Of a stretch of 64,000 nt of DNA, positions 1 to 48,466 are shown one piece after another. Under the pieces are notes generated by a model, which saw nothing but the letters and a program-made list of their open reading frames with translations, was not told the origin of the DNA and ran no database searches. Location: positions 23,746 through 87,745 of IMG/VR virus record IMGVR_UViG_3300027776_000001, one strand, 5' to 3'. Made by a program: the position numbers and the translations under genes. The first letter of the stretch is position 1; every line of letters begins with the position of its first letter. The DNA is from a virus. Taxonomy: Duplodnaviria > Heunggongvirae > Uroviricota > Caudoviricetes.

Positions 1-3000
1 ATTCATTGAACTTAGTCAAAGCCTCTCCGACACTAACAGTAGCTTCGTATGTGCCTAGAGCAATTTCTAGCTGCTTCTTAGCGTTAGCCAGAATACCGTC
101 TAGATAAGCAACGTCAGCGTCATACTGCTTCTGGGCTGCTGCAATTTGAGCATCGATAGCGGCAAGACTTAGGTTGTACTGCTTGTCCAATGCGTCTAGC
201 TCAGATTGATAGAAAGCAGAAGTTGCTGCAGCATTTTCACGAGCAACAGCGCCAGCATTTTCCAGAGCAACAGCCATTCTCTCGGCTTCAGTCATTTGCT
301 TACCAGCAATCCCTTGAATTTCTTCTAGGTAATTGGCAGCAACTAACTGTTCACGAGCGAAGTCTTGAGCACTAGCGTAATTATCAGCAGTGTTTCCAGC
401 AAGAGTGCTAGTAACAGCACTAATAGCATCAGCAGTAGGCAATTGTCCAGCACGAGCAGCAGTTGCCATTTTAACCAAGTCACGCTTTGCAGCTTGATAA
501 TTGGTGTTAACAACTTCAGCAACAGTTCCACGTAATTGAACAATACCACTCTCAAGAGCATCGAAAATACCCTTCAGCGCATCGGCAGCTTCTCTAGCCT
601 TGGCTACTGCTTCTTCAGCAGCTTGAACTTGGGTGTCTGCAGCAGCTTGAGCACTAGCAGCTTCAGCTTCTATAGCACTCTTACGTTCGTCATAAGTGCC
701 CTTCAGAACTTCCTTCTCAGCATTCAGCACAGTGATATGTGCATCTAGCCTGCTCTTTAGCGCATCCTTTTCAGCATTAACAGACCGTTCCAGACCAGAC
801 AAAGCACTTTGAGCAGATGCTTTCAGTGCGTCAAGTTGTTCTGTCAACAGTTTAATTCTGTCAGCAGCAGCTTGTGCCGCAGGGCTAAGCTCACCAAGTG
901 GTGGAAGGATTTGATCCAAAGCTGGTGCAAGTTCAAGCAATGCTAGATACAGAGTACGTTGACCTTCATCGGCTAGATTTAGACCGTTAACAAGATCACG
1001 GAAACCTTGCCTTGTCGTTGGCATTGCTACGCCAAGTTGAGCAAAAGCTGCTGTAACTTGCTTAGTAACAATATCAATCTTTTCTGTGCCAGAGTAGAAC
1101 TTATCGAAGAAGAAATTAACCTTCTCGCTCAGTGCTTCTAGACCACCAGCCATTTCAATCAGGCTCATCTTAGCTTCGATAGCTGCCATTCCAGTAGCCT
1201 GAAAGACCTTGGAAAGATCAGCGCCCAATGCTGAGAATATGCCATCAATCGTGGCAATTGAAGAGGCCACACGCATTACTGTTTCAAAGTAACCTTCGCC
1301 AATCTCTTGGAATTGCTCGAAACCCGGAAGAGCAGCCTTAGCCATTTCATCGCCAAGCTTTGAGAACATGGTGGTGATTTGCTCTTGAATTTGAGCACCA
1401 CTCAAATCTTTTAGACTCATTTCACCAAAGTCAATAACCATGTTATTCAACACAGACATGATTTCAGTTTCACCCTTACCAAGAAGCTTACCAGCCTCAA
1501 CAACGCCTTGTGCAAGCGATTGAATAACTAGTGTGAATTGACGTTCAACTTCAGTGTCTAGATCGGCAGTTTGCTGAGATACAGACGTCTTCTTACTGAA
1601 TAGTCTCTTCTTGGTTGTTTCAATGTTGGCGTATGATAGACCTTGGAAACCATCCTTCAAGATTTGTGCAATGGTTTGTCCAGTGCCCTTGATACCAGTG
1701 TCTAGAAGAGTAGTCTTCTTACCAAACAAACTACCTAGGAATTTACCAACTGGATCGCCTAGAGGAGAGAACTTCTCAGCACCTGCAAAGAACTTACCAA
1801 CAGCATTCATTTGGAAGCCAGTTTGACCAGCTAGAGCTTCAGCAGAATCATTAACACCTGACTTCAGGATTTGCTTAGCTGTTCCTGCCAATGCCTTTTC
1901 AATACTGATCAGTGCCTTCAGCATACCTCTTTGGTACGTAGAAGAAATCTCAGAATTCTGTGCCACAATCTCTAGGGACTTAGTAATAGATTCTGACTTA
2001 GCGTCACTATCACCGAACACAGTGCCCTTACCAGCAGCTTCCTGATTCTGTTCTGCAGTATTGAATGAGCCTCCACCGCCTCCCTTAAACAAACCTAGAG
2101 AAGCCATAAGTGCCATAACGCCAGCACCGATCACAATACCAGTAAATGGCCCAGAGGCAAAACCAGCAGCAATAGCCTCTAGAGCATAGGCGGCACCACG
2201 AGACATAGCGCCAGCGATACTCTTAGCTGTCATGGCAGCTTCTGACGCAATCTTCTTGGCGTCTAATGCAAGCGAGGCCAGCTTGTAGGCCATTTCAATC
2301 TTTTGCAAAGCCTTGTAGCCCTTGCTACCTTCCTTGAAGAACATCTTCAAAGAGCTAGTCATATTGGCATACATTTCTAGATTTGACTTGCTAGACTTTT
2401 GCTGAATGTCAGCAAGTTTCTTAGCCTTATCTGCACCTTGTAGCTCTTGAGCTTCCTTCTGCATAGCAAGGATTTCTTGCTGCTGCGTGTAGTAAGTAGC
2501 CATAGTTTTAACAACACTGCCTAATGCCTTACCAACAGTACCAAAGGCATCGCCTAGGCCTGTGCTAATCGCATCAGCAAGATTGTTAACATTTTCAATA
2601 GCTTCCCTGCCAATAATCAAATCAAGTTCTTGTTGAAGCTTTGGGATTTCTTTTCTAAGACTATCAATTAGGCCTTGTAAAGCGCCTGCCTTGCCGGGAT
2701 CATTCTCTTTAGCAATCTTAGTCTGAGCTTCTGCTAGTTTTCTGTTAGCTTCTTCTAGCGCTACACGCTTCGTGGCACTTGCCACTTCGTGCAATCCTTG
2801 AGCGTATGCCTTTTCTTTAGCAATGCTTTGGTCAAGTTGGGCAATACGTTGGTTACCTGCTGTGATAGCACTTTCATAAGCATTAACCCAAGCATTTATT
2901 GCTTCTTCATGTTGCTTGATAGACTTTTGAGCGACACGATAGCTCTCTTCTTCTCGGATAACGAGTTCTAGCTCTTTTTCCTTAAGATGAAGCTTCTCAC

Positions 3001-5056
3001 GTTGAACTGCCGACATACGGATTTCAGAATCAGCAAGTGCATGCCTAACTTCAACCAGCTTACGTTCAGCAGTAGTCTGCTTTTCAGATTCAGCAATACT
3101 TTCACGAGTATTTTGAATAACCATCGAAGCCGAGTTAATAAGACTTGACATGTCCTTTAGCTCTTGCTTCTTGACACCAGCCTTCTTCTCAATAGCCTTG
3201 ATTTCGGCTTCATGGAAAGCTAGGATTTGCTTAGCAGCTTCGCTGCCATCATTAGCCTTTACACCAGCCTTTTCCAGTTCAGCAGTATAGCGAGCAACTG
3301 CATTTGTCTTCGCCTTCTCAATACCGACGATATCCGCACCAGACTTCAAGTAACGATCATTCAATTGAACACGATACTCACGCTGATCATTAGCCTTTTT
3401 CTCAGCTTCTGCTTCAGCATTCTTTAGTGAGATACCTCTTTGCAAATGTCGAAGATTTTCTTGTTCTGCAGCCAATTGACGCTCAGCTATTCTTAGTTGG
3501 CTTTCTTGAAACTTACTAAATCTTGCACCACCACGTTCAGCAGCAGCCTTAGCAGTTTGAAGACCAACCAGATCAGCCTGAAGAGCCTTAACCTTAGTCA
3601 TTGCTTCTAGGGATTTTTCACCCTCAGTAGCGTCTCTTCCCCAGTTGTGGAAGAAGTCAGATACCACCTTACCAAGAGACTTGAATAGGCCAAAAACCCA
3701 CTCATAATAGCGCTCTAGATATCCTCTTGAAGCAGAAGTAGATTGCTTAGTACCTTCATCAAGTTCCTTATTAAGAGCTACAATAGCAACTCTTAGAGCT
3801 TCACTCTGACGACCTTGTACTTGCAATGTCGAGATATACTTCAAGGTTTCTTCATCAACAGTACCAATTGCCATTGCCAACTTCAAAGGCTCTTCAGCTA
3901 GATCAGCAACTTTCTTCTGCACATCGTCGAAGTCCTTACCAGATAGCTTAGCCCACTTGGACGTAATTTCAGTAAGTCCTACAATCTCTTGTCCTGAGAA
4001 TCTACCAGCTTCTGTAAAGGAATCAAAACGATCCTTAGCTTCACTCAACGAGATATTCAGTTCAGAACCTAAAACAGAAGCAGCTTCTCTATACTGACTG
4101 TAAGTGTAGCCTAATTGATTTCCTGACAAGAAGACTTCATTGTTGAATTCTCTTTGTTGCTTTGATGCCATAATAATATTGGCACCATAAGCTAAGAAAC
4201 TCCCAGCCACAGCAATCACTGCACCCTTAAGAGTTAGCATAAAGCCAACAACAGGCTTAAGAGCATTCATGATTGTGCCCGGCAATCCCTTAACAGCAGC
4301 GCCGATACCACCATAAGCTTGACTTACTTGACCACCTTGTTGCATCAGAATAGTCAGTGGATTAGCACCAGAAGCTAGCGATGCAGCAACGTCATTGACA
4401 GTATATTGCAGGGTCAATAACTGGAAGCGCTGCTGATTACCTAGTTTGCGTACTTGCTCTTCTTCAAGCTTTTGAGCATCTGTTTTTCTCTTACTTACTA
4501 CAGCGGCTTGAGCAGTTGCTGCATTAGCTCTACGTTGAACTTGTTCATTCTGTGTTATGGCCTTGTATGCTCGCTCTTCTGCTGCAACTTCCAGATTCTT
4601 CTGTGTAAGAAGTCTAGAAGAATTAACTGCGCGAGAAGTAGCTAGATTATCCTCAATACGTTGAGTATTAGCAATAACTCCGTAAGCACGTTCTTCCGCT
4701 GCCATACTCTTAGCTCTTGCAGCAATAACCTTCTCTGTCATTAGGAGGTTTTGAGCAGCAGCTTTATCAATAATAGCCATAGCTGAAGCATATTTTTGCG
4801 CTGAGTCAGCTACTGCCTTAAATGTCCCTTCATTCGCCTTCATTGCGAGAGACAAATCATTCAGTTGGATAGCCAGTATCTTATATGTGCCAGCCACCAT
4901 CTTATTAATCGTGTCAAGGGTAGTTAGCGTACCCTTGAGTTTTGTAGCAGATTGCTCTGCCTTGTCCGAATTGACGACTAGTTTTTCTAGTCCTTCGTTC
5001 GTTTTATCAATACCCTTAGCTACTACATCTACCTGTAATTGTGTTAGCTCAATCAT
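1..5056 (-). CDS. tail tape measure protein, N-terminal ~1685 aa (C-terminus lies beyond window start)
   Basis: No minus-strand stop across 1-5056 (track lists only short + ORFs here); translation from ATG ~5056 begins MIELTQLQVDVVAKGIDKTNEG and continues as Ala/Gln/Lys-rich coiled-coil repeats; position downstream of chaperone-like ORFs. Confidence 0.75.
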   Translation of the reverse strand, partial: MIELTQLQVDVVAKGIDKTNEGLEKLVVNSDKAEQSATKLKGTLTTLDTINKMVAGTYKILAIQLNDLSLAMKANEGTFKAVADSAQKYASAMAIIDKAAAQNLLMTEKVIAARAKSMAAEERAYGVIANTQRIEDNLATSRAVNSSRLLTQKNLEVAAEERAYKAITQNEQVQRRANAATAQAAVVSKRKTDAQKLEEEQVRKLGNQQRFQLLTLQYTVNDVAASLASGANPLTILMQQGGQVSQAYGGIGAAVKGLPGTIMNALKPVVGFMLTLKGAVIAVAGSFLAYGANIIMASKQQREFNNEVFLSGNQLGYTYSQYREAASVLGSELNISLSEAKDRFDSFTEAGRFSGQEIVGLTEITSKWAKLSGKDFDDVQKKVADLAEEPLKLAMAIGTVDEETLKYISTLQVQGRQSEALRVAIVALNKELDEGTKQSTSASRGYLERYYEWVFGLFKSLGKVVSDFFHNWGRDATEGEKSLEAMTKVKALQADLVGLQTAKAAAERGGARFSKFQESQLRIAERQLAAEQENLRHLQRGISLKNAEAEAEKKANDQREYRVQLNDRYLKSGADIVGIEKAKTNAVARYTAELEKAGVKANDGSEAAKQILAFHEAEIKAIEKKAGVKKQELKDMSSLINSASMVIQNTRESIAESEKQTTAERKLVEVRHALADSEIRMSAVQREKLHLKEKELELVIREEESYRVAQKSIKQHEEAINAWVNAYESAITAGNQRIAQLDQSIAKEKAYAQGLHEVASATKRVALEEANRKLAEAQTKIAKENDPGKAGALQGLIDSLRKEIPKLQQELDLIIGREAIENVNNLADAISTGLGDAFGTVGKALGSVVKTMATYYTQQQEILAMQKEAQELQGADKAKKLADIQQKSSKSNLEMYANMTSSLKMFFKEGSKGYKALQKIEMAYKLASLALDAKKIASEAAMTAKSIAGAMSRGAAYALEAIAAGFASGPFTGIVIGAGVMALMASLGLFKGGGGGSFNTAEQNQEAAGKGTVFGDSDAKSESITKSLEIVAQNSEISSTYQRGMLKALISIEKALAGTAKQILKSGVNDSAEALAGQTGFQMNAVGKFFAGAEKFSPLGDPVGKFLGSLFGKKTTLLDTGIKGTGQTIAQILKDGFQGLSYANIETTKKRLFSKKTSVSQQTADLDTEVERQFTLVIQSLAQGVVEAGKLLGKGETEIMSVLNNMVIDFGEMSLKDLSGAQIQEQITTMFSKLGDEMAKAALPGFEQFQEIGEGYFETVMRVASSIATIDGIFSALGADLSKVFQATGMAAIEAKMSLIEMAGGLEALSEKVNFFFDKFYSGTEKIDIVTKQVTAAFAQLGVAMPTTRQGFRDLVNGLNLADEGQRTLYLALLELAPALDQILPPLGELSPAAQAAADRIKLLTEQLDALKASAQSALSGLERSVNAEKDALKSRLDAHITVLNAEKEVLKGTYDERKSAIEAEAASAQAAADTQVQAAEEAVAKAREAADALKGIFDALESGIVQLRGTVAEVVNTNYQAAKRDLVKMATAARAGQLPTADAISAVTSTLAGNTADNYASAQDFAREQLVAANYLEEIQGIAGKQMTEAERMAVALENAGAVARENAAATSAFYQSELDALDKQYNLSLAAIDAQIAAAQKQYDADVAYLDGILANAKKQLEIALGTYEATVSVGEALTKFNE

Positions 5057-22983: not shown

Positions 22984-23169
22984 ATGAAGCCAAGCATCAA
23001 ATTGACACGTAATCCTTTTACAGGGGAAGCTCTCTATGAGTGTAGAGGATTTAAGCCGTATGGTGATGTCATCAGAGGGATGTATATAGTTGTTGGTTAC
23101 GGAAGCACTCCTGTAGAGGCTTACTATGACTGGAAAATAAATTCTCCTAAAGCTATTGACAAATGGTAA
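22984..23169 (+). CDS. hypothetical protein
   Basis: 61 aa ORF with AGGAGAA RBS. Confidence 0.35.
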   Translation: MKPSIKLTRNPFTGEALYECRGFKPYGDVIRGMYIVVGYGSTPVEAYYDWKINSPKAIDKW

Positions 23170-23374
23170 TCTTGTGGTAGGATAGAAATGAAATCCTCAG
23201 AAATGAGGTGGACAAGCTCAAGGGAACTCAGGGAGAAGCTCCTTAGACCACAGGACGGACAAGTCTTAGGGAATCTAGGGAGAAGCTATATGGGGTACTG
23301 CGTATGATATCTTGTAAAGTATCTTACAGAAGTCTTGTGGGGGGTAGGGGGGAGTATTGAAAAAGAATTTGTAA

Positions 23375-23405
23375 AGGCAGACTGTTGAGGTCTGCCTTTT
23401 ATTTT
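23375..23405 (+). terminator. rho-independent terminator
   Basis: AGGCAGAC-tgttgag-GTCTGCCT followed by TTTTATTTT. Confidence 0.6.
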
Positions 23406-23421
23406 GTCTAGAGGAGATAGA

Positions 23422-23811
23422 ATGGAAGACAGTAATTATTATGCAGATGATGCTGCCATCATTGATGCGTTGAGCAACGTGATGTACATACCTAGTGATT
23501 GTACAAAACTAACACTAGAACTAGAAGTGTATAAGCTCACTACTGAATGCCTACCTACCAGTCGTGTCCACTTAGGAGAGTCGGAGAAGAGCAGCAGCTT
23601 CAATATCGTGTTCACAGAAAAGGAACTTGCAGCTATTGCAGGAGCATTGTGGTTGGTGAGAGTGGATAACGATATCATCTTCGGAATCAACAATAAGCTG
23701 GGTGGTGTCCTAGAAGAATATCAAGATCGTATGTATGATCATGTACGTTGTAGCTATTCCCCAGATGAGGGACTCACTGTTGAACTGAAAGATTACGTAG
23801 ACAGCTTGTAA
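23422..23811 (+). CDS. hypothetical protein
   Basis: ATG 23422 (MEDSNYY) with AGGAGA RBS; 129 aa. Confidence 0.35.
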   Translation: MEDSNYYADDAAIIDALSNVMYIPSDCTKLTLELEVYKLTTECLPTSRVHLGESEKSSSFNIVFTEKELAAIAGALWLVRVDNDIIFGINNKLGGVLEEYQDRMYDHVRCSYSPDEGLTVELKDYVDSL

Positions 23812-23824
23812 AATAAATTATAGA

Positions 23825-23858
23825 AGCCCCTTCACAGAAATGTGTTGGGGCTTTTTCT
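23825..23858 (+). terminator. rho-independent terminator
   Basis: AGCCCC...GGGGCT stem followed by TTTTT. Confidence 0.5.
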
Positions 23859-23940
23859 ATTTCTGGACAGGACAACGTATTGTGTCATCTTGTAATGGCA
23901 TTTTGTCAAATTTCTATGAAAAATTTTTCTGTAGATGGCA

Positions 23941-23955
23941 TGTTACATTGTAACA
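23941..23955. repeat. 15-bp perfect palindrome TGTTACA-T-TGTAACA (operator-like site, copy 1)
   Basis: 7-1-7 inverted repeat in non-coding region. Confidence 0.5.
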
Positions 23956-24390
23956 AAATTGTAGGAGTGATTATAGAAGACTTTAGGAATAGCTTGGGGA
24001 GTAGGCTTACCAAGAGGTAAGGGATTGGGAAAGGATTATTAGGAAAATTGGTAATTTACTTATTCATGGTACTGAAAAATTACTAAATTACTTCTGTATG
24101 GTTTAATAGACCCGGAATGAGTCTTGTTCTCATTGCCCTCACAATCAAAATATCACGCTCTTGTCAAGTATCCCCGTCTAGTAGCCGATGAACGGTCATT
24201 GCATAATGCCTGTCAAATGCACCTTACTTTACATAATGAGTGTTATGCGAAGTCACTTTAGATACCGTCTGTCGGATAGTAATAGGCTTGCATCATGCTT
24301 ACAGAATGTCTTGTTCTAGCACTGATCCGTAGCATTAGCACGTATTTCCCATGCACAGAATGACATTCCACCAGTATTTGCATGATGTAA

Positions 24391-24405
24391 TGTTATAATG
24401 TAACA
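24391..24405. repeat. near-palindrome TGTTATA-A-TGTAACA (operator-like site, copy 2)
   Basis: one mismatch from copy 1, 450 bp downstream, same non-coding region. Confidence 0.45.
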
Positions 24406-24411
24406 TTTTGA

Positions 24412-24640
24412 GTGAACACTCGTTTACTGACTCGTCACACACCACACATTCCTTTCCCCTATACCCAAGCCCTGTACAAGTGCTTACACCATGCTTACAC
24501 AGTCCTTACAAGGACAGGGAGGAAGCCTCAGCCAACCCCCTTAGTAGCCACTCACACTAAACGTTGCACAGACACGTACAATTCCTCACATAAACACACA
24601 TACAAGGCACTATACACATACCCCCATGTAGGGGTGTAGC
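24412..24640 (+). repeat. CA-rich, G-poor low-complexity tract with 11-bp-phased GCTTACAC repeats
   Basis: strong strand asymmetry; GCTTACACCATGCTTACACAGTCCTTACAAGG; ACACATA repeats. Confidence 0.5.
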
Positions 24641-24793
24641 TCCCCCGTGGTAGGTAGTCTGTAAGACCCTTTAGAATGCCTGTAACAAAGCCTTCCATAA
24701 TAAGCCCTTAATAAGAACACTAATAATAATGCTTCTCATTCCTCTTAGCAGATAAAAGAAAAGGACAAGCCGTTAAGCTTGTCCTCCCTCGCA

Positions 24794-25069
24794 TTACACT
24801 GTCCGTGGTTTAATAGCTAGTCTGTAGCTGTACCTTATCCCCTTGAATGTACCCCTCTTATTCCACCCCTCAATAAGTCTCAGTGCTGCTGCTATTGGTA
24901 TACCCTTCTCTGTTAATACTTCATGTACAGATGATGCCTGAATCTCAGTGAAAGGGTATTCCTTAGTATGGCTTGACCCAGTGCTGTCATAGTAGACAGT
25001 GCATTCGTAGTGGGTATAGTGGTCAAACAAGCAACTTAGTAAGCGTTCTTCTTTAGTCTCAATAGACAT
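24794..25069 (-). CDS. hypothetical protein
   Basis: 91 aa ORF. Confidence 0.3.
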   Translation of the reverse strand: MSIETKEERLLSCLFDHYTHYECTVYYDSTGSSHTKEYPFTEIQASSVHEVLTEKGIPIAAALRLIEGWNKRGTFKGIRYSYRLAIKPRTV

Positions 25070-27042: not shown

Positions 27043-27399
27043 TTATTCAGAAGCTGACACAATAAACACGGTAGGCTTAGGGCCGCGCACCTTTGTTTCC
27101 AACTTCTTACTAGCCTTAATTTTGCCTGCTTTCTCCAAAGAGCGCAAGCAATTTGTTGCTTCCGGTGCTGTCAGGCCACAAGCTGCAGCTACATCCTTAG
27201 CTGTTGCGCTACTTACCTTCTGCATATGCTCATACACAGTATTGATACGGCTTTCTGTCTTCTCGCTGACAGAACGACCACTCTTAGGCACTGTGCCGAT
27301 AAGTTGGCAAGCAAATTGCGTAGCCTTGTCCTTACTAATCTTGTTGGCCTTAGCGAAGGCTTGAACAAGCGCGGCTTGGTTCTCATTGATAGTTTGCAT
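27043..27399 (-). CDS. winged-helix DNA-binding protein (putative transcriptional regulator)
   Basis: 118 aa; C-terminal wHTH-like segment VAAACGLTAPEATNCLRSLEKAGKI. Confidence 0.4.
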   Translation of the reverse strand: MQTINENQAALVQAFAKANKISKDKATQFACQLIGTVPKSGRSVSEKTESRINTVYEHMQKVSSATAKDVAAACGLTAPEATNCLRSLEKAGKIKASKKLETKVRGPKPTVFIVSASE

Positions 27400-36859: not shown

Positions 36860-37435
36860 TCAATGCTTTGTCAACCTCACAGTGCCATGACGTTCTGTAT
36901 AGCCGTCTGGTAAGTTATCTTCCCTGAATTCTATCGCCAACCGCATGGCCTCCTCTTGGCCTAATTTACCTATATTAAATTTCTTCTGTATTTTCTTACC
37001 TGAATCTAGGTAAACTGTAGAAACGTAATACTTAGCGTGCCTGTTGTTGCAGTTTTTACCAGTATCTTGTAGATAAATGCCCACAGGTAATCCTGTATCT
37101 TTTGAACGAGCTTTATTTCTTGAGTTTATTTTATTAGTTTCTGCCCTTAAATTGTTTATGGAGTTATTTAAAGAATTACCATCAATGTGGTCTATGACTT
37201 TACTGCTGATTTCCTTGTTGAAAATTTCCGCAATTACTCTATGAACCATATAAAGTTTTCTTTTATATTGTACTTGCCAGTATTGTTTACCATGGTGGTC
37301 TGTGTGAATACAACCTGCCGGCGTATTCTTCTTAATTGACAAAATTGTTAATCCCTTGCCTGACCAAATATCAATAGCCCACCTCAGACAAGATGGACTT
37401 GTCTCATCATAATAAAAAATTTCATCCCACTTCAT
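36860..37435 (-). CDS. HNH homing endonuclease (HNH_3-type), paralog of 47927..48466 and 63741..64000
   Basis: FYYDETSPSCLRW N-terminal motif; VIDHIDGNSLNNSINNLR HNH motif; ATG 37435 with AGGAG RBS. Confidence 0.6.
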   Translation of the reverse strand: MKWDEIFYYDETSPSCLRWAIDIWSGKGLTILSIKKNTPAGCIHTDHHGKQYWQVQYKRKLYMVHRVIAEIFNKEISSKVIDHIDGNSLNNSINNLRAETNKINSRNKARSKDTGLPVGIYLQDTGKNCNNRHAKYYVSTVYLDSGKKIQKKFNIGKLGQEEAMRLAIEFREDNLPDGYTERHGTVRLTKH

Positions 37436-37476
37436 ATAATCTCCTTTAGGGGCTCCATTGGAGCCCCTATTTATTG

Positions 37477-37734
37477 TCAAGTGTTGTTTTGCTTGTTGTG
37501 GCGCTTCACTGCGTAGTCTAGACCCTTTGCAACCATAGAGATTACAAAGTATGCTCCAATAACAACAGGCCACAACGCCGTGGTTATAATAACCACCAGC
37601 ATAGCTCCACCGATTGCCTCTTCTTTTTCCTGACCCTTTTCATAGATATCTACAAGAGACTGATGAATCCAGTCCTTGCCATATATCAACCACACCACAG
37701 CCAGAATCAGTCCTATAGTGAGATAACCTAGCAT
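37477..37734 (-). CDS. hypothetical two-TM membrane protein (holin-like topology)
   Basis: 85 aa with two hydrophobic helices and charged C-terminus. Confidence 0.3.
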   Translation of the reverse strand: MLGYLTIGLILAVVWLIYGKDWIHQSLVDIYEKGQEKEEAIGGAMLVVIITTALWPVVIGAYFVISMVAKGLDYAVKRHNKQNNT

Positions 37735-38642
37735 GCTTCACTCCTAACAATGTTACGGATTTCCTCTACGGTTTGGTAACGGATAAGCGTACCATCTTCA
37801 TACACCAGTTCCAGCTCACCAGTAGCTTCCTCTTCACGAGTGGCCTGATCCTTCAGGAACAGAACACCATTTTCGTCACGACCTACGTGTAGCAGACCCT
37901 TAGCACTCTTCTTCACACCCTTGTCAGTGGCTGGGTCTTTGAAGAGTTCTCGGCCCGTACCATTCACAACAGCATGTGTAGCCTTCATTGCCATGCCGTA
38001 GGTGTCACGAGTGATATATTGGTAGGTATAAGACCCAATACCAAACACTACATTACCGCTAGCAAAGTTCATCTTAGCCAGTCGCGTAAGAATCTCTTCA
38101 GCACGCTCCAGAGTGATGCTATCACCATAGATCAGGCCAACCCGCTCACTCAGCATGCGATAACCAGTGGACGTTTCCGTACCACCAAAGGTGTTCCACA
38201 GGCAACGTACAGCGCCAAGGGCTTCGGACTCAGTTATTTCCTTGAAATCTAGGTCATAACCATCAAAATCACCGTAGTAGTAGCGAGCGTACTTATCCAC
38301 TTCGTAATACTTGCCTCCTACCTTGACAACTTCACAATCATCACTTATGTCCCTTTCCTTTATATCATCCACATCAGTGTACTCCACGAGTTCATGAATG
38401 TCGTATCCGCAGATAATACGGAAAGGATCGCCACTATCAGGACGGAACACAGTCTTTGCCAGACCTAGAGCATTCGGGGTACGGGCCAATATCTCCTCTT
38501 TACAAGCTGGTGCAATTTTAGTAATCACATCCCAGAAATTGTAAGTGTCCGATACATAACTGCAAACACCACTAGGATAAATGTTAGTAATGTAGTGCCG
38601 GAAAAACATTGTCTCGGCAATAAGCTTTAGATCATTCTTCAT
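37728..38642 (-). CDS. NAMPT-family phosphoribosyltransferase, C-terminal half (separately translated fragment of split gene; Namat/NadV-like)
   Basis: Homology to NAMPT C-terminal region (VVSDSYD-like CSYVSDTYNFWD, RPDSGDP); own GGAGG RBS + ATG at ~38642 overlapping stop of inserted HNH gene (ATGA). Confidence 0.6.
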   Translation of the reverse strand: MKNDLKLIAETMFFRHYITNIYPSGVCSYVSDTYNFWDVITKIAPACKEEILARTPNALGLAKTVFRPDSGDPFRIICGYDIHELVEYTDVDDIKERDISDDCEVVKVGGKYYEVDKYARYYYGDFDGYDLDFKEITESEALGAVRCLWNTFGGTETSTGYRMLSERVGLIYGDSITLERAEEILTRLAKMNFASGNVVFGIGSYTYQYITRDTYGMAMKATHAVVNGTGRELFKDPATDKGVKKSAKGLLHVGRDENGVLFLKDQATREEEATGELELVYEDGTLIRYQTVEEIRNIVRSEAC

Positions 38643-39177
38643 AAAACCTCCATGTAAGTTTAGTGCCATCTGGCAAAGTTCCTGCGGATTTGAAACCAGT
38701 TTTACCTCTGCAACATGCTGAAATATTGGATTTCTTAAGACCAAGAATTTCTGCTGCCTCTCCAATCGAGTTAAAAACTTGACCAGTAGTAGTACAGACA
38801 ACACTTTTTCCTTGACTTTCTCGAATACCTTGCTTTCTTTTTGCAAAATCTTTTATTAACCTATTGTCCCAAGCGTGTTGAGTTTGTTCTGACCGAGTTG
38901 CCCATTCAAGATTAGAGACATGATTATTCTTTTTGTCCCCATCCTTGTGGTTCACAGTCTCTTTCTTTTCAGGGTTAGGAATAAATGTTTCAGCAACTAG
39001 ACGATGAATCCTTTTTGTGTACCTGTGCCCGTCATCACCTTGTAGTCTAACTACTGAATACCCATCTTTGTTTCTTTGTGGTACAAGAAATCTGTCCACT
39101 GTCAGGGCATATACCTTCCCTTCACAAAATATAAGGTATTTAGAGAAGTTTGTCAACTTCTTCGGCTGTGTAGCCAT
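38632..39177 (-). CDS. HNH homing endonuclease inserted within NAMPT-like gene
   Basis: NHKDGDKKNNHVSNLEWATRSEQ HNH motif plus C-terminal IENR/NUMOD-like VFNSIGEAAEILGL; start taken at MATQPKK (~39177). Confidence 0.6.
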   Translation of the reverse strand: MATQPKKLTNFSKYLIFCEGKVYALTVDRFLVPQRNKDGYSVVRLQGDDGHRYTKRIHRLVAETFIPNPEKKETVNHKDGDKKNNHVSNLEWATRSEQTQHAWDNRLIKDFAKRKQGIRESQGKSVVCTTTGQVFNSIGEAAEILGLKKSNISACCRGKTGFKSAGTLPDGTKLTWRFYEE

Positions 39178-39979
39178 TCCATTCTCCTTTATCCTTAAGC
39201 TCTTGTTCAATAAGTAAAATATTACAAGATGCAGTACTGTGTTCGCTTGCAGGAACAGAGCCACCAAGGAACGTACTACCACCATTGTAGAACTGCTCAA
39301 GATAATCCATAGCAGGAATCGTATCAGTGCCAAGGAAGCTTAGCAAATGACCAGCGCTATAACCAGTATCAGACACACCACCAACACCACGGAAGCTGAA
39401 GTCATGACCTTGCCACTCAGTGAATTCCACAGGAGTGCCAGTCTTTTTTGCGTAGTGTACCAACAGACGCTTGTATTCAGCGGCAATAGTTGCAACAGTG
39501 GTGGCCTTCCACAGCTCTGCAGACAGCAGAGTTTCTAGGAAATTTGTCACCCAAAAGAACTCAGGCAGGGTATTAGTAATCGTCAGCATAGGCACCTTAG
39601 AAGGAACGAAGCTGCCTTCCTTGATAGCCTTAATACGGATTGGCAGATAGCCTAGCTTATGCAGAGCTTCGATATGATCAAAGCCTACAGCACCCGGCCC
39701 AAGAGAGCTATCCATACGACGCTGCCATTGCGCTTTCACCACTTCGAGAGGTTTACCAAAGAAATTACGCAGGAAATCATCCTGAATAATGTTCAGCAGG
39801 AAGCCCTGCAAGCCAAAGAATACCACACCATCCTTGGCAAAGCTGCTCTTCTTAGCCAAACGGCTGGAACGTGGTGTAAGGTTGGAGTAAATATACTCAG
39901 TGCCTTCAGGGTATTGATTGATGTGATTTATTTTGTAAAAATCAACCGCAGTAATCGGATTATAATTAAACATGTTCAT
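39140..39979 (-). CDS. NAMPT-family phosphoribosyltransferase, N-terminal half (Namat/NadV-like)
   Basis: [16 protein letters not shown] matches NAMPT N-terminus; [25 protein letters not shown] and SVPASEHST match conserved NAMPT core; last ~27 aa non-homologous read-through. Confidence 0.65.
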
Positions 39980-40493
39980 AGTCTCCTATTGGAAAATTAG
40001 TTCTGGCAAATTTGCCGTGCATCTGTATTGCGGCTTTATCGTAAGCTCTAGCAGCTTCCTCTTTAGTGTCGTATCTGCCAAGCTTGTAGATTATACCATC
40101 TTTTCGGATATAGGAAAGCCACCTTATTTCTCGCCCTTTCCTTGTGACACCTTTGAAGCCTGATTTACTCCAACCTTCTCTGTTTGCACAGTTATTACTT
40201 CTTGTTGCAGGTCGAAGATTTTCAATCCTGTTATCGTTCTCTACCCTGTTTTCATGGTCAATCTCATGGTCAGGATACTTACCATAATGAAGAAGCCATA
40301 CTAAACAGTGCTCACGGTAATATACACCATGAATTTTCAAGGTCACATAACCATGAACCGGGTGAACACTCCCCGCCCGTTTTCCTACACAATCCTTGGC
40401 TCTGCCTTTAACCCAAGTCTTGAAATACAAGTGCCCATCAGTCCGGTACTCATACCTTTCGTTGAGCACTTGAAGTAATTCTTCGTCACTCAC
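39966..40493 (-). CDS. HNH-AP2 homing endonuclease
   Basis: [20 protein letters not shown] motif and AP2-like [40 protein letters not shown]. Confidence 0.6.
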
Positions 40494-42379: not shown

Positions 42380-43144
42380 ATGGGAAGAAAGGCAATTACA
42401 ACAGAAGAGTTTATTGAAGCAGCTAAAAAATTACACGGAGATACCTACAACTATTTCAAGACAAAATATACAGGAAGATTAAACAAGGTGTTGATCACTT
42501 GCCCTGTTCATGGTGATTTCATGCAATGGCCTGCTAGTCATCTGTCGGGTAGTGGGTGCAGGAAATGCTCTAGAAGTAGCAGAGCTAAGGGATTGGGAAA
42601 ATTCATAAACGAGTCTGTCTCCAAGTTTGGAAAGAAGTTTAGCTACAAAAATGTAGATTACAGGAATGCTCACTGTAAAGTAATCTTGGAATGTTCAATC
42701 CATGGAGAGTTTGAAATTATTGCACGAAAACACTTGCAAAGTCCTACAGGTTGCCCAAGCTGTGCTAAGACAGGTTTCAATCCCCATGCACCACAAGCTA
42801 CGTTTTATGTTTTCAATGTTATTGGTGAAAGAAGTTTTGTTAAGTTTGGCATAACTGGGAAATTAAATGACAGGCTAGCAACTCATAGAAGAAACCTGAA
42901 ATTACATGATTTAAGAATCTCTGGAGGTGTTTTATGTCTACATTTTTCAGCGAAAATGGTTCAAAAATTAGAGGCACATATAAAATCTAGTATAGTAGTT
43001 GAAAGGTCAGACATAAAGGGTTTCAAGACAGAGGTCACTACTTGTGTGCCAAAAGAAGAACTTCTCATGCTTTGCAAATATTGGTTGACTTCTAACGACG
43101 TTGCGTTTATAGTAACAGAACTTAAGAATAAGGAGTTAGTATGA
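42380..43144 (+). CDS. homing endonuclease-like protein, T5orf172/GIY-YIG-like with two zinc-ribbon repeats
   Basis: CPVHGDF..H..GCRKC and CSIHGEF..H..GCPSC repeats; FYVFNVIGERSFVKFGIT motif; paralog of 5941..6654. Confidence 0.5.
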   Translation: MGRKAITTEEFIEAAKKLHGDTYNYFKTKYTGRLNKVLITCPVHGDFMQWPASHLSGSGCRKCSRSSRAKGLGKFINESVSKFGKKFSYKNVDYRNAHCKVILECSIHGEFEIIARKHLQSPTGCPSCAKTGFNPHAPQATFYVFNVIGERSFVKFGITGKLNDRLATHRRNLKLHDLRISGGVLCLHFSAKMVQKLEAHIKSSIVVERSDIKGFKTEVTTCVPKEELLMLCKYWLTSNDVAFIVTELKNKELV

Positions 43145-47535: not shown

Positions 47536-47952
47536 GTGAGTATGTCTAAAATCTTTTTGATCGCCTTCTTAGGCGTTTTGTCAGTCGTTTCGTGGGGTAC
47601 GACACATAATGTCGCCAGAGATAACCAATGCATGGCTGTAGCAATGTGGAAGGAAGCTAACACAGAGAGCCTGAGAGGGAAGCGAGCTGTCCTAGATGTG
47701 ATTGAGTACAGGATGAAAGTTCTTGACAAGACAGCATGTCAAGTGATACAACAGCCTAAGCAATTTTCCTTTTACAGGAAAGGTATGAGTTTAAAAGCCA
47801 CTGAAGCACAATTAAGAGCTATGGAGGCTGTTTACAGGAGTCCAAAAGTACTTTATGGGTACGCTTATTTTCACGCTAAGAGTGTCAAGCCAAAGTGGGC
47901 TGCTAAAATGAAGGGGAGGGTTGTAATTGGGAACCATGTATTCTATAAATAA
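47536..47952 (+). CDS. SleB-family cell wall hydrolase with N-terminal signal/anchor (candidate endolysin)
   Basis: CMAVAMWKEANTESLRGKRAVLDVIEYR...QPKQFSF matches Hydrolase_2/SleB core; hydrophobic N-terminus. Confidence 0.6.
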   Translation: MSMSKIFLIAFLGVLSVVSWGTTHNVARDNQCMAVAMWKEANTESLRGKRAVLDVIEYRMKVLDKTACQVIQQPKQFSFYRKGMSLKATEAQLRAMEAVYRSPKVLYGYAYFHAKSVKPKWAAKMKGRVVIGNHVFYK

Positions 47953-48466
47953 TTGGTGGGAATTCTTTGTTTATGATGAAACAAGTCCAAGCTGTTTGAG
48001 GCGAATTAGTGATGGCAAGCCTGCAGGATATATTTTTCTGGATAAGTGGTGGAGGGTTAGTTTTAAAGGAAAGAGTTACCTAGTTCACCGAATAATTTAC
48101 GAAATGATGACAAATACCCGTTTAGGGAATTATGTGATTGATCATAAAGACTTAGACGGGGCTAACAATGTAATAACAAATCTGCGAAAGACCACTTATA
48201 AAATCAACAACCAGAACAGACCAAAGCCTAGCAATAACACTTCAGGGTATGTCGGTGTTCGGTTACTGAAAGATAAATATTGGCAGGCACGTTGGCAAGA
48301 GAATGGTAAAGGGGTTTGCAAAAGTTTCAGTGTAGAGGAATTTGGAAACACCGCTCTGGAAATGGCTATCGAGTTTCGTAAACAAAGAATAATGGAACTA
48401 AATCTAAACGGACAAGACTACACAGAAAATCACGGTAAAGAGTACGCAAAAAGGAGAAACAAATGA
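47927..48466 (+). CDS. HNH homing endonuclease (paralog of 36860..37435)
   Basis: FVYDETSPSCLRR; VIDHKDLDGANNVITNLR HNH motif. Confidence 0.6.
   Translation: MGTMYSINNWWEFFVYDETSPSCLRRISDGKPAGYIFLDKWWRVSFKGKSYLVHRIIYEMMTNTRLGNYVIDHKDLDGANNVITNLRKTTYKINNQNRPKPSNNTSGYVGVRLLKDKYWQARWQENGKGVCKSFSVEEFGNTALEMAIEFRKQRIMELNLNGQDYTENHGKEYAKRRNK

Follow-up and report, generated by a model that had tools for sequence, protein, structure and literature searches.

Conserved palindromes and boundary-like motifs in a gene-free convergent junction: a candidate genome-terminus region in an uncultured relative of Pakpunavirus and Otagovirus

Phages with direct terminal repeats (DTRs), of which T7 is an example, package their DNA by recognition, cutting and duplication of the repeat. 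For myoviruses we know of essentially no cis signals for DTR generation, and the mechanism that generates the 0.5- to 1.2-kb DTRs of Pakpunavirus and Otagovirus is, to our knowledge, uncharacterised. The repeats themselves have been located in several of these phages. In the Pakpunavirus PaP1 (family Vandenendeviridae, subfamily Skurskavirinae), run-off sequencing mapped a DTR of 1190 bp (PMC3652863). The terminal repeat of Adele is 1165 bp long (PMC12846349), and that of the Otagovirus phiPsa374, determined with PhageTerm and annotated at both ends, is 526 bp (PMC9796965). The Ab02 record carries an annotated repeat_region of 1165 bp at each end, and the JG004 and EPA1 records begin at most 10 bp from the same boundary. 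We compared these ends with a junction in a 64,000-nt stretch of viral DNA (positions 23,746 to 87,745 of IMG/VR record IMGVR_UViG_3300027776_000001, Caudoviricetes; hereafter, the window), where genes are interrupted by a gap of 982 bp at 23812-24793. The mapped ends of the relatives all fall in a gene-poor junction equivalent to this gap. Going by sequence comparison, we lean toward reading the gap as the concatemer junction at which the linear, terminally redundant genome of a Vandenendeviridae-related myovirus has its termini. The gap has the convergent architecture of the mapped junctions, is syntenic with them and matches their boundary motif, and several of its elements are conserved in a related contig.

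The gap is the largest gene-free stretch in the window and contains no credible gene. To its left, a plus-strand block encoding PhoH, a ClpP-like protease, an HD hydrolase and several ORFans stops at 23811. To its right, a minus-strand block (a 91-aa gene, DUF7227 and a 167-aa phrog_11084 protein) stops at 24794. The two blocks converge on the gap, with their 3' ends and terminators facing it. By hexamer coding score, the open reading frames (ORFs) within the gap resemble shadow ORFs, with the exception of one 48-aa ORF on the minus strand (24552-24698). This ORF lies in a C/A-rich tract, has a gene-like hexamer score of 0.27 and is preceded, 6 nt upstream, by a Shine-Dalgarno-like AAGGG. Its score may simply reflect the C-poor composition of the minus strand there, and it has no detectable counterpart in the related contig L158 described below. 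The gap contains no tRNA gene, and a search of it with the Rfam 15 covariance models gave nothing at the gathering score; the best match at the E-value threshold, at 20 bits, was a terminator hairpin. The first-pass annotation of this DNA had described 0.8 kb of non-coding sequence (23860-24660) separating oppositely oriented gene blocks. Hexamer scores, tRNA search and Rfam agree with the region being non-coding, but its true extent is that of the longer gap, and the blocks, while opposed, converge with terminators and so leave no divergent control region between them.

Protein comparison relates the phage distantly to Pakpunavirus and Otagovirus. Its large terminase (TerL), portal and capsid proteins are about 40% identical to those of Pakpunavirus, Otagovirus and NoPa-group Pseudomonas myoviruses. 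The best characterised TerL matches, at 40-42% identity, are to Pakpunavirus-, NoPa- and Otagovirus-group phages with DTR-ended members; because this identity is low, the relatedness to DTR phages gives weak support. Metagenomic relatives at 55-65% TerL identity lie on contigs of 80-94 kb. A nucleotide search with the region against 50,697 phage records returned no match, and exact-protein look-ups of the window genes, together with TerL scans of IMG/VR and metagenome contigs, recovered no close relative. We dropped DUF7227 as a lineage anchor because T7-like and SU10-like phages, which are unrelated, have the domain as well. The window carries eight tRNA genes (Thr, Asn, Ser, Glu, Tyr, Leu, Pro and Phe; 15916-16610, minus strand) immediately upstream of its terminase gene, an arrangement also seen in Pakpunavirus.

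Gene order gives a more direct comparison with mapped ends. In PaP1, the left physical end is reached by the block with ClpP and HD, which is divergent from the tRNA-TerL-portal-capsid module, and the right physical end by the block with gp128 and DUF7227 (gp135). By tblastn synteny, the same genes flank the window gap with the same polarity as in PaP1: one flank has ClpP/HD, and the other has a gp128-like gene and then DUF7227. At the equivalent junction, NoPa, PN09 and PAK_P5 are gene-poor over 0.9-1.4 kb. Synteny and motif homology together connect the region with the junction at which the terminal repeats of Pakpunavirus and Otagovirus were mapped.

The motif evidence comes from the repeat boundaries, both of which are kept between the two genera (a slash marks the boundary). 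The left boundary reads ..gtgtta/agcgacagc in Ab02 and ..atacta/agcgaagcg in phiPsa374 (TA/AGCGA), and the right boundary reads ..cgtggtt/aagtagctcgg and ..cattggtt/aaacacctc, respectively (TGGTT/AA). In the window, the exact 11-mer TGGTTTAATAG occurs twice on the plus strand, at 24099 and 24806, 707 bp apart (boundary-like copies A and B in Table 1). Copy A resembles the Pakpunavirus right boundary cgtGGTT/AAGTAGctcggaaat. Copy B overlaps the last codons of the 91-aa gene, and the stretch around it (24804-24818) matches the PaP1/Ab02 right-boundary 15-mer CGTGGTTAAGTAGCT (CGTGGTT/AAGTAGCT) at 13 of 15 ungapped positions. Allowing up to two mismatches, this 15-mer has only two matches in the 64 kb, against about 0.12 expected. 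We infer that the window motif TGGTT/TAATAG is homologous to the Pakpunavirus right boundary TGGTT/AAGTAGCT, and the predicted DTR, delimited by the two direct copies of the motif, would span about 707 bp (24104-24810). This length is within the range of the family, from 526 bp in Otagovirus to 1165-1190 bp in Pakpunavirus, where an inserted HNH gene accounts for about 600 bp.

Conservation was followed in L158, an 80-kb contig found by protein search with the 167-aa neighbour gene (homologue 57% identical) and the closest relative for which the region could be fetched; the comparison covered 20.5 kb of this contig. There, two gene blocks converge on 2.35 kb without called genes, collinear with the window gap in reverse orientation. 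Local alignment of the two junctions recovered the terminator at 23827-23858, the palindrome, a block identical at 18 of 19 positions (GTAGCCGATGAACGGTNAT), TTTACATA..TATGCGAAGT, AAGCCCTGTACA and ACACATAC..TAGGGGTRTAGCTC. The 18/19 block (GTAGCCGATGAACGGTCAT in the window, 24181-24199) corresponds to L158 17102-17084 on the minus strand, and a sub-block at 24228-24253 (TTTACATAATGAGTGTTATGCGAAGT) is partly conserved. The sequence CTAAGTAGCT, identical in L158 to the Pakpunavirus boundary core, occurs only twice in the 20.5 kb. Both copies fall in the junction, 1529 bp apart, on the strand that matches the window plus strand: one, at 17221 (minus), lies between the palindromes, collinear with copy A, and the other lies at the far end of the junction beside the block on the 167-aa side, like copy B. 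Two further relatives were less informative. In L154 (TerL 61% identical), a homologous terminator closes the PhoH/ClpP block, and at least the next 375 bp contain no gene; this terminator is the sole part of the region that aligns cleanly to both L154 and L158. L159, whose neighbouring 167-aa protein is 41% identical, shares no motifs with the window.

Two 15-bp palindromes, TGTTACATTGTAACA at 23941-23955 and TGTTATAATGTAACA at 24391-24405, are present exactly where the first-pass annotation had placed them. They are the only exact matches to TGTTAY-N3-GTAACA in the 64 kb and lie 450 bp apart; a copy with one mismatch, at 17732, is inside coding sequence. L158 has three copies (17045, 17432 and 17450), all in its junction and nowhere else in the sequence compared. 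Palindrome 2 and its flanks are identical to L158 17041-17066 at 23 of 26 positions, and palindrome 1 is collinear with the L158 palindromes at 17432 and 17450. The separation is 387-405 bp in L158 versus 450 bp in the window, and the arms are kept while the spacer varies. That the palindromes persist in L158 although their surroundings have diverged argues for a function, and it bears out the earlier description of the region as a non-coding hub of protein-binding-type repeats. Overall, the comparison argues for a functional cluster of non-coding cis elements.

The half-site of the palindromes, TGTAAC, is enriched in the window junction (4 observed versus 0.36 expected; P = 5e-4) and in the PAK_P5 junction (7 versus 0.24). 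TTGCAT is likewise enriched in the cluster region of the window (3 versus 0.48; P = 0.013) and in the PaP1 junction just inside the DTR (7 versus 1.33; P = 5e-4). Across the relatives, both enrichments are lineage dependent. The PAK_P5 (Nankokuvirus) junction, L151 4500-4900, contains at least six direct repeats of ATTGTGTAAC(A/C/G) with the same TGTAAC half-site as the window palindromes, as well as three ATTGCAT motifs, in a C-rich, gene-poor stretch of 1.4 kb.

The remaining repeats listed by the first-pass annotation were also recovered. All five TTRCATNATG repeats of the 64 kb lie within 24199-24390, as do both copies of ACAGAATG. AATTACT repeats are present at 24045-24091, together with inverted repeats, and units resembling GCTTACAC recur at 24482, 24493 and 24504 with 11-bp spacing. 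The description of the adjoining tract as almost devoid of G was overstated: 24410-24640 contains 15.6% G, compared with a window mean of 21.7%, and is not the G minimum of the window. It is, however, the 230-bp stretch with the highest C+A content (65.7%), and comparable C/A-rich tracts occur in the junctions of PaP1, NoPa, PN09, PAK_P5, L031 and L159. RNA from the tract has no excess structure (z = -0.3 for the plus strand and -1.8 for the minus strand), which, with the lack of an Rfam match, speaks against the structured RNA that had been named as an alternative. We also considered the tract as a sponge for Hfq/Crc and rejected this reading, as AANAANAA has 89 matches in the window versus 78 expected, with only 2 in the region, and the RNA lacks excess structure. 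The lowest-C 230-bp stretch of the window starts at 23877 (8.7% C). The C-poor tract there shares TTGTAGGAG with PaP1, where it lies about 100 bp before the left DTR boundary; motif sharing between the window and PaP1 in short-blastn comparisons is not significant by itself. As for a CsrA sponge in the GGA-rich part (23956-24050), GGA density is high without being unique, and the fold is unremarkable.

Table 1. Features of the window gap (positions within the 64,000-nt window) and host-type parS sites in relatives (positions within the respective records)
Feature	Position	Strand	Remarks
Hairpin terminator with T-run	23827..23858	+	Inverted repeat; closes the plus-strand block; usable on both strands
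Palindrome 1, CATGTTACATTGTAACAAAA	23939..23958		Core TGTTAC-ATT-GTAACA, 23941-23955
C-poor, GGA-rich tract	23956..24050	+	Composition scan
AT-rich segment	24045..24095		About 76% A+T; AATTACT-type direct and inverted repeats
Boundary-like copy A, tatGGTT/TAATAGacccggaat	24099..24109	+	Predicted left repeat end, cut near 24103/24104
Conserved non-coding block, GTAGCCGATGAACGGTCAT	24181..24199	+	L158 comparison
TTRCATNATG cluster	24199, 24229, 24288, 24378; 24381-24390	+ (first four); - (last)	Cores GCAT-N-ATGC, small palindromes
Palindrome 2, TGTTAT-AAT-GTAACA	24391..24405		Exact arm match
C+A-rich, G-poor tract	24410..24650	+	Holds GCTTACAC repeats (24482-24510), AAGCCCTGTACA (24467-24478) and ACACATAC...TAGGGGTGTAGCTC (24611-24645)
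Intrinsic terminator	24759..24788	-	Closes the minus-strand block (91-aa gene, DUF7227 and others)
Boundary-like copy B, cGTGGTT/TAATAGCTagtc	24806..24816	+	Predicted right repeat end, cut near 24810/24811
Host-type parS, TGTTNCACGTGNAACA, in relatives	L014 15682, 17714, 21557; L015 19356; L152/L153 (phiPsa374 DTR) ~98150; L003 11083, 11695		

The closest parallel is the DTR region of the Pakpunaviruses PaP1, Ab02, JG004 and Adele. Like the window gap, it is a gene-poor junction between converging blocks, flanked by ClpP/HD on one side and by gp128-like and DUF7227 genes on the other. It shares the TGGTT/AAGTAGCT-type boundary, the GGA/GT-rich stretch (TTGTAGGAG) before the left boundary, the TTGCAT cluster just inside it, GTAACA-type palindromes and a C/A-rich tract. 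The differences are also clear: the proteins are only about 40% identical to those of the window, and nucleotide similarity is not alignable beyond the motifs. The window repeat lacks the HNH gene and has a predicted length of 707 bp rather than 1165-1190 bp, its junction has the opposite orientation with respect to part of the surrounding gene order, and its ends are predictions. The phiPsa374 DTR lies at the same junction, has a comparable size without inserted genes, ends on the right in TGGTT/AA and is likewise packed with short repeated cis elements. These, however, are its own: GAAAGC-N-GCTTTC palindromes, a triple TATATAGTGCAACGGTAAT repeat and a host-type parS, without TGTAAC enrichment.

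More remote systems offer a functional analogy only. SPP1 (pacL-pacC-pacR), lambda (the R sites of cosB) and the T7 concatemer junction all have protein-binding repeats on both sides of the cleavage position. The window resembles these modules in having repeats that flank a predicted cleavage position in a non-coding concatemer junction, and it differs in having no sequence or protein homology to them. On the general DTR model exemplified by T7, terminase would recognise this junction in the concatemer and then cut or nick it at each of the boundary motifs; duplication of the repeat would leave every virion with a copy at either end. The palindromes would straddle the predicted left boundary, palindrome 1 about 150 bp outside the repeat and palindrome 2 about 290 bp inside, and may serve as recognition sites for a packaging or end-binding protein such as the small terminase subunit, for which the gene upstream of TerL (15353-15889) is the candidate in this phage. 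Inside the repeat, the CATNATG cluster, the C/A-rich tract and the conserved blocks could be additional cis elements or non-coding DNA that is transcribed early.

Several observations weigh against placing the genome ends here. A second convergent junction must exist outside the window, and it could hold the termini instead. Relative to PaP1, nicotinamide phosphoribosyltransferase (NAMPT)/PRPP-synthetase and the replication module are rearranged, and the orientation of the junction relative to the flanking genes differs. The palindrome arms are absent from Otagovirus and NoPa, which have other palindromes and parS sites, and nothing beyond the terminator aligns between the window and L154, even at 61% TerL identity. 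The boundary-motif match was spotted by eye before being tested, and an 11-mer found twice within 1 kb is not rare by itself. Furthermore, the immediate flanks of copy A resemble the right boundary of the relatives, not the left one, and a left boundary of the TA/AGCGA type was not found in the window. It is thus possible that just one of the motifs marks an end of the true repeat, or that the repeat ends elsewhere.

Of the other explanations, a replication origin was the leading proposal of the first-pass annotation. The TTRCATNATG repeats and the palindromes would then bind an initiator, with the AT-rich segment at 24045-24095 as the unwinding element. Four repeats on one strand do cluster within 190 bp, and a segment of 76% A+T with inverted repeats (24050-24099) adjoins them; such stretches are not specific to origins. 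The supposed short iterons, however, turned out to be palindromes of 9-15 bp, with spacings of 30, 59 and 90 bp between TTRCATNATG sites and 450 bp between the large palindromes, rather than tandem 17- to 22-bp units in helical phase. The flanking proteins have no Rep or initiator domain, and 23812-24793 has no DnaA box (TTWTNCACA). Cumulative GC skew, the check proposed together with the origin, has a local maximum at the gap and minima at about 17-18 kb and 42 kb, and thus points away from an origin, although skew in phages mostly follows transcription. The junction is also far from the replication genes (primase/helicase at 61 kb), and its homologue in relatives is a mapped genome end. We regard an origin as unlikely, although one could coexist with a terminal repeat inside the same region. 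A repressor or activator control region between divergent operons, also proposed at first, does not fit a convergent junction between two terminators. The winged-helix-turn-helix (wHTH) protein at 27043-27399, named as a possible binder, has near-threshold HTH matches (of the six listed, only FaeA is above threshold, at 21.7 versus 20.7 bits) and no homologue of it was detected in L158, whose 20.5 kb compared here has these palindromes too. The palindromes could still be operators over extended -10 promoters, with TGTTATAAT directing transcription rightward from 24391 and TGTTACAAT leftward from 23955. These would yield a C/A-rich RNA of about 380 nt and an RNA of about 100 nt ending at the 23827-23858 hairpin. 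The plus strand of palindrome 2 does hold a perfect extended -10 element (TGnTATAAT), and the minus strand of palindrome 1 reads as an extended -10-like element (TGnTACAAT). Sigma-70-type promoters occur elsewhere in the phage (TTGACA-17-TATAAT at 18113), contig L145 has a single copy of the same palindrome 20-mer in a divergent promoter-like gap, and the related PAK_P3 makes abundant intergenic non-coding RNAs (PMC4933390). Against this, neither -10 element has a -35 element, a consensus promoter scan gave 4 sites versus 4.8 in shuffled sequence, and the predicted RNAs have neither excess structure nor an Rfam match. In L158, moreover, the spacer AAC gives TGTTACAAC or TGTTATAAC, which spoils the -10 while the arms are kept. 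Selection thus seems to act on the palindrome arms and not on the -10 hexamer. In PAK_P3, the predicted terminus gene is the one untranscribed feature of the genome (PMC4933390). The operator reading is therefore, in our judgement, improbable.

A centromere-like role would make the palindromes parS-type sites for a ParB-family protein of host or phage that positions or condenses phage DNA. Relatives lend this idea some substance: perfect host-type parS sites (TGTTNCACGTGNAACA) occur in their intergenic DNA, including this junction (three in NoPa, one in PN09 and two in XD2), and in the mapped phiPsa374 DTR, and L158 has a version with two mismatches at 16911. These sites suggest recruitment of host ParB to phage DNA in some lineages. 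Like parS2 of Vibrio chromosome II (PMC3688505), the window palindrome is an AT-rich inverted repeat of 15 bp with the core TTACA-N-TGTAA. The V. cholerae parS2 half-site, however, is TGTAAA, and the position at which the window half-site TGTAAC differs is invariant in 10 of 10 functional sites (PMC3688505). The window also has only two copies, and it has no canonical 16-bp parS at up to two mismatches; Pakpunaviruses lack parS as well. No ParB-like domain was found among about 50 window proteins scanned with Pfam and PHROGs, with about a quarter of the genome lying outside the window. We consider this role highly improbable. Scans of public data with the palindrome 16-mer gave mostly single chance matches. 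With the 20-mer, the only viral contigs matched were L031 and L145, and bacterial genomes gave four scattered single matches, which provide no host signal. L031 (IMGVR_UViG_3300019784_005052) is an unrelated 4.4-kb viral contig with four TGTTACAWTGTAACA-type palindromes at 2896-3658, and in two of them the 20-mer CATGTTACAWTGTAACAAAA agrees with window palindrome 1 except at the central W. Their spacing of 128-138 bp beside an (AT)n run has an origin- or centromere-like look. The array is bracketed by AAGTTATAACCTTATAACTTT repeats, has a G-rich tract on one side and a C/A-rich one on the other, and lies upstream of a gene for an RHH+HTH protein.

With these alternatives weighed, the region is best explained as a terminal-repeat and packaging region of a kind already known for the phage family. 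A terminal repeat would itself be expected in this phage group, and the conserved palindromes have not been pointed out before. We offer more tentatively the possibility that the TGGTT/(T)AA(G)TAG motif and a lineage-specific palindrome pair on either side of one boundary constitute a packaging-initiation module that is conserved in the Vandenendeviridae as well as in their uncultured relatives. Such a module would specify where terminase makes DTRs of 0.5-1.5 kb, and some lineages may in addition have captured host parS, hinting at recruitment of host ParB to phage genome ends. If the terminus reading holds, sequence alone could predict where the genome of an uncultured phage physically ends and how long its repeat is, which would help to orient and complete metagenomic phage genomes. 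The boundary motif and flanking palindromes would provide candidate cis signals for studying how long DTRs are generated in a therapeutically relevant family, and the reading of such regions as origins or operator hubs would be corrected.

The window has other features that may merit attention. A second non-coding gap, at 23170-23403, looks like a stand-alone small RNA gene (23156-23410, plus strand). Its candidate promoter, TTGACA-16-TGgTAGGAT, overlaps the stop codon of the upstream gene, and the predicted transcript of about 215 nt repeats some 50 nt internally, carries a strong terminator (23373-23399) and has a fold z-score of -3.2. An embedded 39-aa ORF scores as non-coding, and Rfam gave no match to the candidate. 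With 8 GGA in 100 nt, mostly AGGGA, it surpasses the rest of the window in GGA density, a composition reminiscent of CsrA/RsmA-sequestering RNAs.

The NAMPT gene (37728-39979, minus strand) is split into two ORFs, 39140-39979 and 37728-38846, with about 290 bp between them, and the second has about 70 extra N-terminal residues. The split may reflect an intron or the insertion of a homing endonuclease. Homing-endonuclease genes of the HNH-AP2 type (39966-40493 and 36860-37573) adjoin it, and at least four HNH-type homing-endonuclease genes lie within 12 kb, the others being 42380-43144 and 47927-48466. Pfam assigned HNH_3+AP2 to 36860-37573, 39966-40493 and 47927-48466, and 42380-43144 matched only the endonuclease and HNH endonuclease families of PHROG. 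Among the relatives, some TerL genes carry inteins, such as P0128 (844 aa), which has LAGLIDADG/Hom_end domains.

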